The notes under the pieces were generated by a model. It made no database searches. It was not told the DNA's origin and saw nothing but the letters and a program-made list of their open reading frames with translations. 31,055 nt of DNA from Candidatus Stahliibacteriota bacterium. Lineage in GTDB: Bacteria > Hydrothermota > UBA3072. Of this stretch, positions 17,652 through 26,018 are shown in pieces. Every line of letters begins with the position of its first letter. Within the stretch, counting starts at the first letter, position 1. Both the position numbers and the translations under genes were made by a program. Location: NCBI GenBank assembly GCA_004377355.1, contig SOIB01000007.1, forward strand, positions 1 through 31,055, in the 5' to 3' direction.

Positions 17652-18215
17652 ATGAATGTAAAATTTATAGAAAAACGAACTATGATGGGTGAGGAAGAAA
17701 TGCACTGGGCATTAAGACGTATATCCCATCAGGTGATAGAAGACAACCCACGACTTAAAAAAATTTGTATAATTGGAATTCGAAAAAGAGGAGATATATT
17801 AGCCAAACGAATTGCAGAAATACTTAGTGAGCTGACTTCCTGGGATGTAAATATTGGTGTCCTCGATATAACCCTTTACAGAGACGACCTCACAACCTAT
17901 GGACCTAAACCATTAATTGGTCCTACATATTTCCCATGTCCAATAGATGAATTGCCTGTTTTACTTGTAGACGATGTAATACATACAGGTAGAACAATCA
18001 GAGCTGCCCTCGATGAAATTATGGATTATGGTCGTCCTTCTGCAGTAAAACTTGCAGTGATGGTAAACAGGAGCGGAAGAGAACTGCCTATAATGCCCGA
18101 TTATTTTGGAACTTCTATAGATCTCACAGAAGGCGAAGAAGTTCGAGTTAACATTTTGGAAACGGACGGGCAAGACTCTGTAAAAATAGTAGAGGTAAAA
18201 ATTGATAATGAATAG
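17652..18215 (+). CDS. pyrR: PyrR, bifunctional pyrimidine operon regulator / uracil phosphoribosyltransferase
   Basis: Type-I PRTase PRPP motif VLLVDDVIHTGRT. Size and overall pattern match PyrR. Starts 6 nt after the upstream gene. Confidence 0.8.
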   Translation: MNVKFIEKRTMMGEEEMHWALRRISHQVIEDNPRLKKICIIGIRKRGDILAKRIAEILSELTSWDVNIGVLDITLYRDDLTTYGPKPLIGPTYFPCPIDELPVLLVDDVIHTGRTIRAALDEIMDYGRPSAVKLAVMVNRSGRELPIMPDYFGTSIDLTEGEEVRVNILETDGQDSVKIVEVKIDNE

Positions 18216-19143
18216 GAAAGACCTTTTAGGAATTGAAGATTTAAGCAAAGAAGAAATTGAGGAGATTTTAAAGGTAGCAAAGTCTATGGAAGAGATTCTA
18301 GAGCGACCTATCAAAATTGCACCTACGCTACGAGGAATAACTGTAGCAAATCTATTCTTCGAGCCAAGTACCCGAACCTTGAATTCTTTTACTCTAGCAG
18401 AAAAAAGGCTTTCTGCAGACTCTATTAACCTCGTATCATCTTCCTCAAGTGTTCTCAAGGGAGAAACATTACTTGACACTGCTAAGAATATTCAAGCGAT
18501 GGAAGTGGATATAATTGTCATACGGCATTCCATACCAGGAGCTCCTCATTTTTTAGCAGAGAGATTAGATGCTTCTGTTATAAATGCAGGAGATGGAGCA
18601 CATGAACATCCAACACAAGCCTTATCAGACCTTATGACAATACGAAAAAAGTTTTCTAAAATTAAAGATCTAAAAGTAGCTATTGTGGGCGACATTGAAC
18701 ACTCTCGAGTTGCACGTTCACTTATTATAGGCTTGAATAAGATGGGCGCAAAGGTTTTTGTATGCGGTCCACCTACTTTAATACCAAAATGGATGGATAT
18801 ATTTGACGTTACAATTAAATATAACTTAGAGGAAATTTTACCAGACAAGGACATTTTATATATTCTAAGAGTACAAAAGGAAAGGCAGGAGGAAAGTCTC
18901 CTTCCTTCAATGAGAGAATACATAAAATACTATAGTCTCACCTACGAAAGATTAAGGAAGTTTGCTTCTTCAAAAGTCATTATAATGCATCCAGGACCAA
19001 TTAACAGAGGGATCGAGATTGAATCGCGTGTAGCAGATTCTGAATATTCACTCATTTTAGACCAGGTAATATCGGGCGTGGCAGTTAGGATGAGTATTCT
19101 CTACCTTTTAAGCAGGAAAAAAATCGATGAAAATAGCAATTAA
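18202..19143 (+). CDS. pyrB: Aspartate carbamoyltransferase catalytic subunit
   Basis: STRTR-like (EPSTRTLNSF), HPTQAL and HPGP (MHPGPINRG) motifs. Overlaps pyrR by 14 nt. Confidence 0.85.
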   Translation: MIMNRKDLLGIEDLSKEEIEEILKVAKSMEEILERPIKIAPTLRGITVANLFFEPSTRTLNSFTLAEKRLSADSINLVSSSSSVLKGETLLDTAKNIQAMEVDIIVIRHSIPGAPHFLAERLDASVINAGDGAHEHPTQALSDLMTIRKKFSKIKDLKVAIVGDIEHSRVARSLIIGLNKMGAKVFVCGPPTLIPKWMDIFDVTIKYNLEEILPDKDILYILRVQKERQEESLLPSMREYIKYYSLTYERLRKFASSKVIIMHPGPINRGIEIESRVADSEYSLILDQVISGVAVRMSILYLLSRKKIDENSN

Positions 19144-20419
19144 AGGTGCTCACCTTCTTGATCCAAAGAATAACGTAGACGAAATTGGTAATATTTATAT
19201 TGAAAATGGTATAGTTATAGGTAAATCATCACGTAAGACGCAAGATGTGAAAATAGATGCCAGTGGTCTATATCTAATACCTGGATTAGTAGATATTCAC
19301 TCACATTTTCGTGAGCCAGGCAAAGAAGACGCTGAAACAATAGAAAGTGGATCTCGTGCCGCTCTTAAAGGAGGGTATACAACGGTTTGTGTAATGCCAA
19401 ATACAGAGCCACCGATTGATAATGAAGGAGTAGCAAGATTCATAAAGGAAAAAGCAATAGAGAATAAAAAATGTCGAATTTTTCCAGTTGGAACTATAAC
19501 TAAAGGAAGAGAAGGTAGGGAACTATCAGAGATGGGACATCTCTATGAAGCTGGTTGTGTGGCTTTCAGCGATGATGGTAACTGTGTAATGAACCCTGCA
19601 GTGCTACGAAGAGCTCTGGAATATTCCCTTTTCTTAGAAGTCCCTATTATAGAGCATCCTGAAGATATGTTATTATCCAAAAATGGTCAAATAAATGAAG
19701 GTATAATATCAACAAAACTCGGATTAAAAGGTATACCTGATATATCTGAAGCATCTATAGTAGCAAGAGATATACTTCTTTCCAAATTTACAGAGGGGAG
19801 ACTTCATCTTGCTCATATTTCATCAGAGGAGTCTGTAAGTATAATAAAATATGGAAAGAGTAAGAGTATTAGGGTTACGGCAGAAGTTACACCACATCAT
19901 CTTCTCTTAACTGAAGAAGAAGTTTTAAGTTTTGACACCAATAAAAAGATGAAACCACCACTTAGAACTAAATCAGATAGAGATGCCCTGCAGAAAGCGT
20001 TGAAAGAAGGAATTATTGATTCAGTAGCTACAGACCATGCTCCACATCCTGATTATGAAAAAGAACTCGAGTACTCTCTTGCTCCTTTTGGCGTAATTGG
20101 TTTGGAAACTGCATTTAGTGCATTATACACCAAACTTATCCTTCCCGGCACCTTAAGTTTTAAGCAATTAATTCTATGTATGACAGATAAACCTGCACAG
20201 ATACTCGCTCTTCCGGTTGGCGAGATAAAAAAAGGAGGAACTGCAGATTTTACCCTTCTTGACCTTGGGAGCGAATGGGAGGTTGACCCAGATAATTTTG
20301 AATCAAAATCAAAAAATTCTCCTTTCATTGGATGGAAACTAAAAGGAGTCATAAAAGCAACTATAGTTAATGGCTTTCTACCTTATAGAGAAGGTGAATT
20401 CCTGAGGGAGGAAAAGTGA
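19127..20419 (+). CDS. pyrC: Dihydroorotase (class I, about 430 aa)
   Basis: Metal-binding DIHSHFREPG and DHAPH motifs. Overlaps pyrB by 17 nt. Confidence 0.8.
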   Translation: MKIAIKGAHLLDPKNNVDEIGNIYIENGIVIGKSSRKTQDVKIDASGLYLIPGLVDIHSHFREPGKEDAETIESGSRAALKGGYTTVCVMPNTEPPIDNEGVARFIKEKAIENKKCRIFPVGTITKGREGRELSEMGHLYEAGCVAFSDDGNCVMNPAVLRRALEYSLFLEVPIIEHPEDMLLSKNGQINEGIISTKLGLKGIPDISEASIVARDILLSKFTEGRLHLAHISSEESVSIIKYGKSKSIRVTAEVTPHHLLLTEEEVLSFDTNKKMKPPLRTKSDRDALQKALKEGIIDSVATDHAPHPDYEKELEYSLAPFGVIGLETAFSALYTKLILPGTLSFKQLILCMTDKPAQILALPVGEIKKGGTADFTLLDLGSEWEVDPDNFESKSKNSPFIGWKLKGVIKATIVNGFLPYREGEFLREEK

Positions 20420-22920
20420 CTGCTTCGTTTGATATCTTCGATTTAGAAACAGCTGCAGTCATGGGAAGTAAATTTCTCTTCTCCTTAAAGGAAGGAGCCG
20501 GTGAGAGTGAACTCTACGAAACATCAAAACAGACACTATCTCGTTATTTTGAACTCAGAGGCTTAGATACAAAGAAATTGGACTTCTTCTTAGAACACAA
20601 ATGTAAGTTTATTATGGAACTAAATAAAGAAGAAAGAGCTTACCTCCGTGATATGTTTACTCGTCTTGAAGAAAATAAAATAAATAAAGAAGACATCAAA
20701 TTTTTTAATAGCCTAACTGAAAATATCTTAGAAAAGGGTTCTCACTATTTTCCTCTACTATTATCTTTAATAATGAAAATTTTTCCATCTGAATTGGTAA
20801 GTGGGGTAAAGAAATCCTTCGAAGTAGGGAAAAGATTAAGCGGATTGCTAAATGATATTTTAAAAAGTAAAGAATTGGATAATTTCACCATTTTGTTTTT
20901 AAAAGAACCTCTTCCAATTGGAATTCCACTCACAAACACCTCATTAGATGACTTCAAAAAATTTCTTACTCCTTATGGTTTTACTCCCGACCTATTAAAA
21001 CAAATTCATAATATTTTAAGAGCTAATTTTACCCAAAGAGAGAGTGGAGATATAATTTCTCTTCTTAAGAACACAGATATATCGGGTTTGGATGATTTAC
21101 GTAACTTTAACTTTTATAGCTTTTTCATACCAGAAGATGATACCTTAGTAAGAATTGCAAAAATAGTATCTGATAAAGCATCCAAAGTGAAGCAAAGATT
21201 AATGCAGAAAGATATGGAACTTGATATGAAAGATGTAAAAGTCCGAGAAGAAACCCACCAACTCCTTCGGAAAAATGTAGAAAAATTACAATCACTAATA
21301 GATGTGAAAAAGGGTAATCTTCAAGAGATTTTGAGTAATACTCAGGAACAATTTACTGCGCTTGAAAAAGCGATAAAACTACATATAAGACATATCCAGG
21401 CGCATGAACATGCTTCTAAATCGCTAAAAAAAGCCATCGATGAGAATAAGATACTACTCAGCATAAATCTAGAAGATATAAAGAATTTCTTTCCCACTCC
21501 TCCCCTCTGGGAAATAGAAAGACTAATAAAGGAATTCTGGCATGAATTACCATACCTCGAAATTATTGATCCTGCATGTGAAAGAAAAATAATTAAGCTT
21601 CTAAAAAAAGAAGAACGGTTATCCTCTGATAAAAAATTATTTTTACAGCTCGCACATACGGAGAGAAGAGGATTCTCTCCTGATATCGAAAGAGTAATCT
21701 TAAATTATAGAAAGGTCTTAGAAGAAATCTTTGAACCTTTATACATCCGTGAAGTAATAAATCGTATGATTGAAATCTGGCCTCCTAACGTTGATTTTGG
21801 AAATCCTAAATCAATAATTGTTACAACTAGAAAACTCCATCTTGCAGGTCTGGATTTACTACCAAAAGGACACTTTTACAGATTCGGAATTAAAGGTAAT
21901 ATAGAGCCCACTATTGATAGAAAGCTGTTAGAAAAAAGAGAACAAATATCAACCTTTCTAAGAAAAGGATTCTCAACCCTTGTTTCAGTTTTAATATATG
22001 ATATTCGTGGCTCGAGTTTTATGGCACATCGCCTTCGGAATGCTAAGAAGGAAAGGTCTATTCGTAATAAATTCCAATCTACTATGCTTGACACAGCCAC
22101 AAGGGGTTCGTCGTTTATACTCAAAGATACAGGTGATGGAGGAATCTTGTGGTTTGGTGGCAATTCTAACAAACTCTACAGGAATATCTATAAGTGTCGG
22201 GAGAGTGAATCAGGGGCAATCTTACGTTCTTCAACTGCTTTTGAAGATGAATTCATACTAACGCCACACCCAAAGAGCGCAGAGATGGCTATTAATGCAG
22301 CATTAAATTTAGTGCAAACGGCCGAGGATTTCGTCACAGAAAATTATATGAACTACAGAGATTGGTTTGAAGAAATAACAGAGAAAGAAGTCTTTCACGA
22401 TGGCATTACCTACGCGTTACTACCTCCTAAATTCAAATCGTTATTCAGGCTTGGTATAGGGATAGCAAGTGGACAACCTGGAAAAGACATTATATTCTCC
22501 CCTAATGCATTTGGGGATCCCGATCTTACGGGAAATATTGTGGACGAATCCGCTCTATTTTCATCCGGGAGGAGTCCTGAACGTTCTGTAATTCTAATAG
22601 ACCATTGTACACTAATAAATCTACTACTCAACTCAGATCAATATCTATTGATTCTTCCCCTAACTAAGGAAGACTCTGACGAGGTAGTTATTGATAAACT
22701 CCTTACCATTCTTAAAAGAGAAGAATCTGAACAGGAATTCATATTCGATGATTTTACTGTATCACCTGTGGGTCTCTATTATATTGACTATAAAGATAAG
22801 GAAAAGAGTATAGAGTTCAAACTTTGGAAGAATTTAAAATTGGAATTCAATGATAAAGGGGACTTATCTAGCAAAAGGGGTCGTGTAAAAATACTCTATG
22901 AAGTCTTAGTTAAGGAATAG
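20416..22920 (+). CDS. Large hypothetical protein (834 aa). It has a ~500-aa alpha-helical N-terminal region of unknown function plus a divergent class-III nucleotidyl-cyclase (CHD/palm) domain around aa 520-715.
   Basis: The C-terminal region matches cyclase hallmarks. LVSVLIYDIRGSSFMA matches vtvlFaDIvGFTal with the metal Asp. ILKDTGDGGILWFG matches iKtiGDaymavfG with the second Asp. AEMAINAALNL and FRLGIGIASGQPG...GNIVDESALFSSG match rvGIhtG...GdtVNlAsRl, but the canonical Arg is missing. GTG start overlaps the pyrC stop (GTGA). Confidence 0.45.
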   Translation: MTASFDIFDLETAAVMGSKFLFSLKEGAGESELYETSKQTLSRYFELRGLDTKKLDFFLEHKCKFIMELNKEERAYLRDMFTRLEENKINKEDIKFFNSLTENILEKGSHYFPLLLSLIMKIFPSELVSGVKKSFEVGKRLSGLLNDILKSKELDNFTILFLKEPLPIGIPLTNTSLDDFKKFLTPYGFTPDLLKQIHNILRANFTQRESGDIISLLKNTDISGLDDLRNFNFYSFFIPEDDTLVRIAKIVSDKASKVKQRLMQKDMELDMKDVKVREETHQLLRKNVEKLQSLIDVKKGNLQEILSNTQEQFTALEKAIKLHIRHIQAHEHASKSLKKAIDENKILLSINLEDIKNFFPTPPLWEIERLIKEFWHELPYLEIIDPACERKIIKLLKKEERLSSDKKLFLQLAHTERRGFSPDIERVILNYRKVLEEIFEPLYIREVINRMIEIWPPNVDFGNPKSIIVTTRKLHLAGLDLLPKGHFYRFGIKGNIEPTIDRKLLEKREQISTFLRKGFSTLVSVLIYDIRGSSFMAHRLRNAKKERSIRNKFQSTMLDTATRGSSFILKDTGDGGILWFGGNSNKLYRNIYKCRESESGAILRSSTAFEDEFILTPHPKSAEMAINAALNLVQTAEDFVTENYMNYRDWFEEITEKEVFHDGITYALLPPKFKSLFRLGIGIASGQPGKDIIFSPNAFGDPDLTGNIVDESALFSSGRSPERSVILIDHCTLINLLLNSDQYLLILPLTKEDSDEVVIDKLLTILKREESEQEFIFDDFTVSPVGLYYIDYKDKEKSIEFKLWKNLKLEFNDKGDLSSKRGRVKILYEVLVKE

Positions 22921-22921
22921 A

Positions 22922-24469
22922 ATGAAAAATAGAATAAAAGAATTCGAAGAAATAATAAAAGCAATTAACTCAGAAAAAATTAATATCGATGAAGTTCTTC
23001 GCCTAATAATGGATAATATATCAAAATTAATTAGCGCTAAAGCGTGGTCACTTCTCCTGTTAGATAAAAAAAATAGAGCACTTGTTTTTAAGGTAGTTAT
23101 TGGCGAAAAAAATGAGGAATTAACTGGAAAAAGGATGCCAATGGACAAAGGAGTGGTGGGATGGGTAGTGAAAAATAAAAAGTCAGTAATTGTATCTGAA
23201 CCTTATCAAGATAAGCGATTTTTCAAAGATATTGACAAAAATACAGGTTTTATAACAGAGAATATTCTAGCAATTCCTTTAATCAATAAAGGCAGGATAC
23301 TTGGAGTCATTGAAGCAATTAACAAAGTTGATGGAACTAATTTCGACCAAAAAGATTTGAAATCAGTTTGCAATTTTGCTGAACATGCAGCTATTGCTCT
23401 TGAAAATGCAAGTCTTGTCCAGAGCTTACAAAATAAAGTGAGATATTTAACACTTATTTCAAATATCAATAAAAATATAACCTCTATTCTTGACCTTGAA
23501 ACTCTACTAAAGAAGAGCACAAAATTAATCCAGAAGACATTTGATTACTATTATGTTGGAATAGGACTTTTTGAAAATGATAAAATTATTTTAAAGGGAT
23601 TCTCTGCTGCTAAAAATATTAAGCCTGTCCGGACCTTAATAAATAAAGGCGAGGGACTTGTCGGAAAAGTTATGAATGATATGAAAAGGATTATAATTCT
23701 GGATTCCGAAAAAGAACTGGATTTTTGTGAAGGTATTAAAGGTGTCAAGAGCGAGATGGTAATTCCAATCAAAAGAGAAACTAATTTTTTGGGTATTATT
23801 GATATTGGCTCACCAGAGAAATATGCTTTTTCAGTAGAAGAAGCAGATATCGTAAGTGAAGTATCACACCAATTAGCTATTGCTGTAGAGAATGCGAAAC
23901 TTTACCAGAAAATAAGACTTGCAGCAATTACTGATGATCTAACAGGTTTATATAATTCAAGATTTTGCAATAAAAAACTACCTGGAATTGTTAATAAATG
24001 GCGAAAGGAAGGTAAAGTTGGCTCCCTAGTATTTATGGATATTGATCATTTTAAAAATATAAACGATTCTTACAACCATTTAATAGGAAGTAAATTATTA
24101 CATTTGGTGGCAAGAAGAATAAAGGAAGTATTGGATGAAGGTAAAATAGGAATAAGATATGGAGGCGATGAATATATAATCCTAATGGAAGATATGGAAT
24201 TAGAAAAGGCAATTGATTTTACCAAAGAAATTAAAAATCTAATTTCGTCGCGACCATATACAATTGGTGATAATTCTGGTGAAATAAAATGCAACGTAAA
24301 AGCCAGCTTTGGAATAGCAAGTTTCCCAGATGTAACAACAGACCCTCAGGAATTACTCCGTCTCGCAGACCTTGCAATGTATTATGTAAAAGCCAACGGT
24401 AGGGATAATATAGCTTATATGGACAAAAACGCTGATATTCAACTTCTTAATGAGCAAACAAATCCTTAA
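22922..24469 (+). CDS. GAF-GAF-GGDEF diguanylate cyclase (active-site variant GGDEY)
   Basis: Two GAF-like modules (..GVVGWVVKNKKSVIV..; ..GEGLVGKVMNDMKRIIIL..). GGDEF domain with DDLTGLYNSRF, DIDHFKNIND and RYGGDEYIILM. Starts 1 nt after the upstream stop. Confidence 0.8.
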   Translation: MKNRIKEFEEIIKAINSEKINIDEVLRLIMDNISKLISAKAWSLLLLDKKNRALVFKVVIGEKNEELTGKRMPMDKGVVGWVVKNKKSVIVSEPYQDKRFFKDIDKNTGFITENILAIPLINKGRILGVIEAINKVDGTNFDQKDLKSVCNFAEHAAIALENASLVQSLQNKVRYLTLISNINKNITSILDLETLLKKSTKLIQKTFDYYYVGIGLFENDKIILKGFSAAKNIKPVRTLINKGEGLVGKVMNDMKRIIILDSEKELDFCEGIKGVKSEMVIPIKRETNFLGIIDIGSPEKYAFSVEEADIVSEVSHQLAIAVENAKLYQKIRLAAITDDLTGLYNSRFCNKKLPGIVNKWRKEGKVGSLVFMDIDHFKNINDSYNHLIGSKLLHLVARRIKEVLDEGKIGIRYGGDEYIILMEDMELEKAIDFTKEIKNLISSRPYTIGDNSGEIKCNVKASFGIASFPDVTTDPQELLRLADLAMYYVKANGRDNIAYMDKNADIQLLNEQTNP

Positions 24470-26018
24470 AATACATCCTGGCATAAAATACCCTGTAACA
24501 CTTTCAAAAATAGACAATCAGTATGCTTCACTGGGAGAAAAAGTCCCTCCTGGAGGAAAGATTGAAATTCTTGATATAAGGAACACAGAAGGAAGAAGGA
24601 CCTATGAAAGAACCCTTGTATTTCTCCTGGATTATATAGCTAAAAGAAAAGGTGTTACTATCAAGATTGAGCATTCTTTTGGAGATGCTTTATATGGCAG
24701 GTTTTTAAAGGGTTCATTAAACTTAAAATCAGCAAAAAAAGAAATTAAGGATTTGATTAAAGCGGATAAAATGATAGAAAGATTAATGTTGCCTAAATTA
24801 GAGGCTTTGCGTTTCTTAAAGGGAAGAGAAGATGACTTTAACATATTAAAATATCTTTCCCGAACATATATCCCTGTGTATAAATTAAACAATTTCGCAG
24901 CGTATTTTGCTGGTCCTTTATTACCAAAAACTGGATTATTAAAAATATTTAACCTGATTAAGATAAAAGATGGATTCTTATTCATCTTGCCAACACAAAA
25001 AGACCCTGATACTTTAGGAAAAATTGAAAAAAGAGAACAATTACTTAAAACATATCGAGAAGCAGAAAAAGAAGTAGAGATATTAAAAGTGTGGGATGTT
25101 GCACATTTGAATGAATATGTTGTCTCTGGAAGGATATCAGAAATAGTGAAGTTAGCAGAGGCAATTCATACAGAAAAATTTACCAATATTTGTGAAGATA
25201 TATTAAGTAAAAAAGATGGAATAAAAATGATACTTATTGCAGGACCTTCTTCTTCCGGAAAAACAACATTTTCAAAAAGACTGGGTATTCACCTTAAATT
25301 GCATGGATTCTTTCCTCTTTATATATCACTTGATGATTACTTCCTGGAAAGAGACAAAACCCCATTATATAAAGATGGTTCTCCATTCTTTGACACTATA
25401 GAGGCAATTGATGTGAACCTATTCAGAAAACATATCTCACAGATTTTAAAAGGCGAAGAAGTAAAAGCATTAACATTCAATTTCAAAAAGGGAAGAAAGG
25501 AATGGAATGGCAAGACATTCAAACTTGAGTCCAACACAATTCTGATAGTTGAAGGAATACATGCCTTTAACCCAGAACTTCTAAAAGATTTAGAAATTAA
25601 TACTTTTCGAATCTATGTCAGTGCCCTTACACAATTAAATATAAACAGGGTAAACCGTATCCCCACTCGTGATGTTCGCTTACTCAGGAGGATATTCAGA
25701 GATACCCGTTTCAGAGGATATCCTGCCAATGAGACATTAAGACGATGGGAATCTGTTAAAGAGGGAGAAGAAAGATTTATCTTTCCACACCAAGAAAGAG
25801 CAGACATAATGTTTAACTCTTCTTTAGTATATGAACTCGCAGTTCTAAAAGGATTCCTCGAAACACCACTTCGTTGCGTTGATATAACTTCTCCTTATTA
25901 CTGTGAAGCTCTCCGTTTACTAAATTTCTTGGACCATTTTCTTGACATAAGAGAGGAAGAAATTCCACAAACTTCAATACTACGGGAATTCATTGGTGGT
26001 AGTACATTTTACTATTAA
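24450..26018 (+). CDS. Uridine kinase/phosphoribulokinase-family P-loop nucleoside kinase with a ~240-aa N-terminal extension
   Basis: Walker A LIAGPSSSGKTTFSKRLG followed by the Udk-like LYISLDDYF. Overlaps the GGDEF gene by 20 nt. Confidence 0.65.
   Translation: MSKQILKIHPGIKYPVTLSKIDNQYASLGEKVPPGGKIEILDIRNTEGRRTYERTLVFLLDYIAKRKGVTIKIEHSFGDALYGRFLKGSLNLKSAKKEIKDLIKADKMIERLMLPKLEALRFLKGREDDFNILKYLSRTYIPVYKLNNFAAYFAGPLLPKTGLLKIFNLIKIKDGFLFILPTQKDPDTLGKIEKREQLLKTYREAEKEVEILKVWDVAHLNEYVVSGRISEIVKLAEAIHTEKFTNICEDILSKKDGIKMILIAGPSSSGKTTFSKRLGIHLKLHGFFPLYISLDDYFLERDKTPLYKDGSPFFDTIEAIDVNLFRKHISQILKGEEVKALTFNFKKGRKEWNGKTFKLESNTILIVEGIHAFNPELLKDLEINTFRIYVSALTQLNINRVNRIPTRDVRLLRRIFRDTRFRGYPANETLRRWESVKEGEERFIFPHQERADIMFNSSLVYELAVLKGFLETPLRCVDITSPYYCEALRLLNFLDHFLDIREEEIPQTSILREFIGGSTFYY

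Follow-up and report, generated by a model that had tools for sequence, protein, structure and literature searches.

The C-terminal part (about residues 515–834) of an 834-aa protein encoded in the window, by which we mean the whole 31,055-nt stretch of DNA analyzed here, is a genuine and very divergent class III nucleotidyl-cyclase homology domain (CHD), an assignment made because profile–sequence, profile–profile and structure comparisons agree. The protein is a class B member of a family that comprises two paralog classes with reciprocal arginines, and it looks like the triphosphate- and metal-binding half of a heteromeric enzyme, the cyclic-nucleotide product of which probably controls a c-di-GMP synthase encoded immediately downstream.

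The gene occupies positions 20,416–22,920 according to the ORF listing (all features given here with coordinates lie on the forward strand) and has full-length homologues at 51–98% identity. Its GTG start overlaps the stop of pyrC by 4 nt and is preceded, 6–7 nt upstream, by a GGGAGGA Shine-Dalgarno sequence, and the N-terminus of the protein is common to 16 aligned homologues.

The PF00211 profile, which the first-pass annotation had named as the check on its cyclase assignment, formally failed: no match was obtained for the 834-aa protein (E ≤ 1), for 21 diverse domain sequences of the family (E ≤ 1) or for 33 full-length representatives (E ≤ 0.01), and NCBIfam models gave no match for the 834-aa protein. 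The missing PF00211 match reflects limited sensitivity, not absent homology. Searches of the PDB with the single sequence (phmmer) and with a profile of close orthologues only also returned no cyclase, a vimentin coiled coil being the sole match, and the cyclase signal emerged only once paralogs of other phyla joined the profile. When the profile was built from 21 diverse family members and run against 177,635 PDB sequences (hmmsearch), CyaB was matched at E 6.8e-5, and Cya2, Ma1120 and a phytochrome–cyclase fusion were matched in the register of CyaB. Profile–profile alignment with hhalign against five solved cyclase domains gave remote homology at 88.4% probability (E 2.8e-6) for the family profile and at 94% probability (E 1.4e-7) for class B alone. 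An AlphaFold2 (AF2) model of the domain, with a pLDDT of 72 overall and 80–94 in the core, matched solved structures in Foldseek at E 6e-8; all of the 50 best matches were class III cyclases, which sets the CHD fold apart from other palm domains. The claim of a highly divergent class III CHD was thus borne out by three kinds of comparison. 6YII, an ATP-binding protein of P. aeruginosa that resembles class III adenylyl cyclases and is likened to the window domain by structural score only, obtained a lower score than active cyclases; both metal aspartates and the Lys/Asp pair are invariant in the window family. A GGDEF (PF00990) identity for the domain, judged by the GG(D/E)EF active-site hairpin, a PF00990 match and GGDEF as the best fold, was rejected.

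Every motif listed in the first-pass annotation is present in the ORF translation where it had been placed. YDIRGSSF (residues 528–535, 21,997–22,020) closes strand β1 and makes up the phosphate loop; it aligns to DIRGFT of CyaB and Cya2 and contains, by alignment to solved cyclases, the first metal-binding aspartate, D529. The β2–β3 motif KDTGDGG (residues 570–576, 22,123–22,143) lines up with K.xGD in solved cyclases, placing K570 at the adenine-specifying lysine position, four residues ahead of D574, the second metal-binding aspartate by alignment. The AxxAAL helix is found in AINAALNLV (residues 625–633, 22,288–22,314), and FRLGIGIASG (residues 677–686, 22,444–22,473) falls on strand β4 in the hhalign register, with R678 two residues ahead of the canonical β4 column for the phosphate-binding arginine. 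NAFGDPDLTG followed by helix α4, NIVDESALFS (22,504–22,563), aligns to YT/DIxG-x-x-VN-x-A-S-R of solved cyclases; within it, D703 aligns with the Asp/Thr column directly before the conserved glycine, which is the adenine-specifying aspartate position, and GNIVDESALFS (residues 706–716, 22,531–22,563) makes up the distal segment. The interval originally proposed, 21,970–22,570 (residues 519–719), captures the core of the domain and falls short of the full cyclase fold, which extends from about residue 515 to the C-terminus at 834 (21,958–22,917).

Several of these residues are nearly invariant. In 188 non-identical family sequences, which share just ~25–35% overall identity, D529, R531, K570, D574, N697, D703 and G706 are 99–100% conserved, with D529, R531 and D574 at 100%. 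In class III cyclases a Lys/Asp pair specifies ATP and a Glu/Cys-type pair specifies GTP; the window protein has the Lys/Asp type, and the earlier suggestion of altered NTP specificity is unsupported, K570 and D703 forming the canonical adenine pair. The protein departs from solved cyclases on helix α4, where the canonical V-N-x-A-S-R carries the transition-state asparagine and arginine and the window protein reads V709-D710-E-S-A-L714 in the hhalign register. L714 stands in place of the transition-state arginine, the absence of which had already been recognized, and the canonical asparagine is also replaced, by D710.

Comparison with the bacterial class III adenylyl/guanylyl cyclases CyaB (P. 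aeruginosa, 3R5G), CyaC (Spirulina, 1WC1) and Cya2 (Synechocystis, 2W01) summarizes both the likeness and the distance. The window domain shares with them its motif order, including the D-I-R-G-x-T loop with the first metal aspartate, K-x-x-G-D, the G-I-x-x-G strand β4, and the Asp/Thr specificity position followed by glycine and helix α4. In contrast, the family has only 16–20% identity to these enzymes and no PF00211 match, has G-S-S/T in the phosphate loop instead of G-F-T, and falls into two paralog classes that complement each other, while the window protein has D710 and L714 instead of the α4 Asn and Arg and carries a helical N-terminus of about 500 residues. Its CHD is also longer, ~320 aa compared to ~190 aa in canonical enzymes, an excess of ~130 residues that is due to two insertions and to inserted residues in the C-terminal part. 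Both of the former are family-specific and leave gaps when hhalign aligns the family with canonical CHDs. The first, between β3 and helix α2 (residues 584–620, 22,165–22,275), is modeled by AF2 as a helix and a β-hairpin with a pLDDT of 67–92. The second (residues 643–676, 22,342–22,443) has invariant columns and holds the most conserved signature of the family, W650 F651 ... G663xTYAxLPPxF, in a segment modeled at low confidence (pLDDT 42–58).

The region ahead of the domain (residues 1–514, 20,416–21,957) had been described as helical with no recognizable domain, and our results agree: its AF2 secondary structure is all-helical, and neither Pfam nor NCBIfam found a domain in residues 1–514, nor did Pfam in the same region of 33 family representatives. 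Two long predicted helices resembling a coiled-coil stalk cover residues 241–348 (21,136–21,459), and another predicted helix runs into the CHD at residues 502–519. In the PDB search with the close-orthologue profile, the only match of the region was a weak one to vimentin coil 2B (E 0.012). With 16 close orthologues as input, AF2 modeled the whole protein poorly (pLDDT 52.7), and Foldseek with this model returned coiled-coil noise only (E > 0.1). From the predicted helices, the N-terminus looks like a long coiled-coil stalk, with a putative sensory role.

The family was found only in WOR-3, Stahlbacteria, TA06, Edwardsbacteria and Cloacimonadota, and has only 49 clusters (50% identity) in a set of 1.84 billion representative proteins. 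It represents a deep-branching group of cyclases that Pfam and NCBIfam do not recognize and that is limited to poorly studied candidate phyla. The two paralog classes are distinguished by residue 678 (window numbering), where 98% of class B sequences have Arg and 96% of class A sequences have Gln, and by helix α4. Class A carries R710 and N713 on the same α4 face (N713 in 96%), with R710 at the canonical asparagine position, not the arginine position, and the asparagine three residues later. In class B, position 710 is never Arg, position 711 is acidic in 96% of the sequences, and position 714 is Leu in 79% and otherwise Phe or Ile, Arg being outside the three commonest residues tabulated there. 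Conservation is also ~100% for the two metal aspartates in class A and for K570 and D703 in class B. Cross-tabulation of positions 678 and 710 gave 81 sequences with Q678 and R710, 102 with R678 and no Arg710, and a single sequence with both arginines; none had neither Arg nor Lys at these positions, two class B sequences having Lys678. A Fisher test on this table returns p ~2e-52, a value that is not evidence of independence; the table is descriptive and does not record 183 independent events, because the A/B difference is fixed between two old paralog clades. The catalytic core thus occurs here in a natural variant form: class B has lost the α4 Asn and Arg, class A has them permuted, and the losses are reciprocal between paralogs that occur together.

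Active sites of class III cyclases span the dimer interface, with the metals and triphosphate contacts provided by one monomer and the base, ribose and transition-state residues by the opposite one. Given this geometry and the reciprocal residue loss, an A/B heterodimer is the most economical reading, and we tentatively propose, at somewhat less than even confidence, that the two classes form a heterodimeric adenylyl-type cyclase that feeds a cyclic-nucleotide-gated diguanylate cyclase. Class B, having lost the α4 Asn and Arg, would supply D529, D574, the phosphate loop and the β4 arginine R678; class A would contribute K570, D703, R710 and N713 opposite the two aspartates and R678 of class B, so that one site would be complete and the other would be without arginine. 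[quoted passage not shown] The proposal assumes, from the alignments, that R678 and R710 are functionally equivalent to the canonical arginines. The substrate would be ATP and the product cAMP, as predicted from the invariant Lys/Asp pair.

The same logic of one complete and one incomplete site is, by analogy, that of the mammalian adenylyl cyclase C1/C2 and of soluble guanylyl cyclase (sGC) α/β. The degenerate site of eukaryotic heterodimers loses metal-aspartate or specificity residues. In the A/B classes, in contrast, neither subunit has lost its metal aspartates or its Lys/Asp pair, class A has its α4 Arg where canonical enzymes have Asn, followed by an Asn three residues on, and the putative partners are encoded by separate bacterial genes, tandem or dispersed. 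Because both classes keep the aspartate pair and K570/D703, the second site may still bind nucleotide, or homodimers may function. If the heterodimer is real, a eukaryote-style design with one catalytic and one regulatory site would have evolved independently in bacteria.

The first-pass annotation had offered a choice between a divergent cyclase and a regulatory pseudo-cyclase. That choice is probably a false dichotomy in view of two classes with reciprocal arginines. Taken by itself, class B could be a non-catalytic sensor or regulator that binds nucleotide and metal, acting through protein–protein contact with the adjacent diguanylate cyclase or as a modulator of a class A cyclase that is active by itself. 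In favor of this, neither canonical α4 catalytic residue is left, the acidic residue at 711 would be unfavorable beside a triphosphate, and class A, which lacks only the non-canonical β4 arginine, could work alone. However, conservation of D529, D574, R531, K570 and D703 at 99–100% in class B across phyla exceeds the usual need of nucleotide sensing, and the arginine losses are reciprocal, not one-sided. We regard a non-catalytic class B as rather unlikely.

The distribution of the two classes also bears on whether class B could act by itself. Among the loci listed, both classes occur in at least 45 of 61 genomes, and this co-occurrence, together with the reciprocal conservation, is the ground on which we infer the heterodimer. 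About 28 loci have the genes in A–B tandem, in every case with A first, then B, then GAF-GGDEF. Homodimers are the usual form of bacterial class III cyclases, and a self-sufficient class B homodimer that makes cAMP or another cyclic mononucleotide would need unorthodox residues to stand in for the α4 Asn and Arg. This part might be played by R531, N697, R678 or basic residues of the 643–676 insertion; the invariant N697 and R531 and the strongly conserved W650–F677 insertion, none of which has a canonical counterpart, could complete a site. Only class B was found in five genomes among the loci listed, as a homodimer would allow, but these are incomplete metagenome-assembled genomes (MAGs) in a pattern-limited scan, and co-occurrence of both classes, often in tandem, argues the other way. 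Moreover, mutation of the α4 Asn or Arg cripples canonical cyclases, according to the passage of PMC7384201 that cites Yan et al. 1997. We consider the homodimer improbable.

The heterodimer proposal gains a prospective output from the gene that begins 1 nt past the stop of the CHD gene. It encodes a 515-aa diguanylate cyclase (22,922–24,469) with two GAF domains and a GGDEF domain (Pfam GGDEF E 1.8e-34) bearing the active-site motif RYGGDEY at residues 412–418. The first GAF domain (GAF-A, residues ~5–170) has as its best PDB match 5W10 (E 2.8e-24), the GAF of Lcd1 (PMC11800159); further matches include CyaB2 (1YKD) and GAFs of PDE2/5/6/10. GAF-A is accordingly predicted to be of the cyclic-nucleotide-binding type, with the ligand suggested by subfamily similarity. 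A class B gene is almost always followed by a GAF-GGDEF gene, at about 51 loci in several phyla. In the proposed mechanism, cAMP would be read by GAF-A of the diguanylate cyclase, which would couple the cyclic-mononucleotide signal to c-di-GMP synthesis. For Lcd1 of Leptospira interrogans, a GAF-GGDEF enzyme activated by cAMP, experiments have established such a relay from cAMP to c-di-GMP (PMC8846402). The downstream gene shares the GAF-then-GGDEF logic of Lcd1, the GAF of which is the closest to GAF-A among PDB sequences; it differs in having two GAF domains, and a feature of the window locus is that the genes for the putative cyclase and receptor are direct neighbors within a conserved cluster. 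This gene order predicts a cyclic mononucleotide to c-di-GMP relay, which is testable.

The wider neighborhood is one of pyrimidine metabolism. Directly upstream lie pyrR-pyrB-pyrC (17,652–20,419; NCBIfam PyrR at 191 bits, above cutoff, and Pfam OTCace and Amidohydro_1), and downstream, overlapping the end of the GGDEF gene, is a gene for a 522-aa uridine-kinase/PRK-like protein (24,450–26,018; Pfam PRK E 1e-17), whose NCBIfam udk match is below the curated cutoff. The starts and stops of pyrR-pyrB-pyrC overlap, and with the CHD, GGDEF and PRK-like genes they form a tightly packed co-directional cluster. Promoter and terminator scans inside the cluster did no better than on shuffled sequence, so it is by the overlapping and abutting reading frames only that the stretch from pyrR to the kinase-like gene may be read as an operon. 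An Rfam scan of the window matched neither a PyrR-binding leader nor a riboswitch, tRNA-Met being its sole match. The same gene order is found in 17 related loci, and the PRK-like gene, which belongs to this clade-specific cluster, keeps its position in L001–L017. This setting raises the prospect of another palm-domain enzyme or a Pycsar-like pyrimidine cyclase that makes cCMP, cUMP or an oligonucleotide signal. But the pyr/udk context is limited to one clade, in contrast to the family-wide link to GAF-GGDEF, and the Lys/Asp pair is an adenine signature. PADLOC defense models gave no match, the chromosomal context is a housekeeping one and an adjacent effector gene is absent; on these grounds a Pycsar (PycC) defense system was rejected, and a pyrimidine or other palm-domain enzyme appears highly improbable.

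In the window's lineage the class A gene is not adjacent to class B; it lies elsewhere in the genome, between rplQ, the last gene of the rpsD-rpoA-rplQ ribosomal operon, and valS. This arrangement invites a more elaborate form of the A/B heterodimer proposal, which we regard as speculative and rather unlikely as a whole. Here the heterodimer would be obligate in WOR-3, Stahlbacteria and Cloacimonadota, with a single catalytic site split between two ancient paralogs and an allosteric nucleotide site that has no arginine but retains its metal ligands, and would be hard-wired to the cAMP-type GAF-diguanylate cyclase. With the B gene in a pyrimidine operon and the A gene behind ribosomal genes, subunit stoichiometry would set cyclic-nucleotide and c-di-GMP output, which would thereby signal how nucleotide supply stands relative to translation capacity.

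A literature search found no report on WOR-3 cyclases. Genes of the family are currently annotated as hypothetical proteins or as unqualified 'adenylate cyclase', and many of its members are named 'class 3 adenylate cyclase' by the JGI pipeline.

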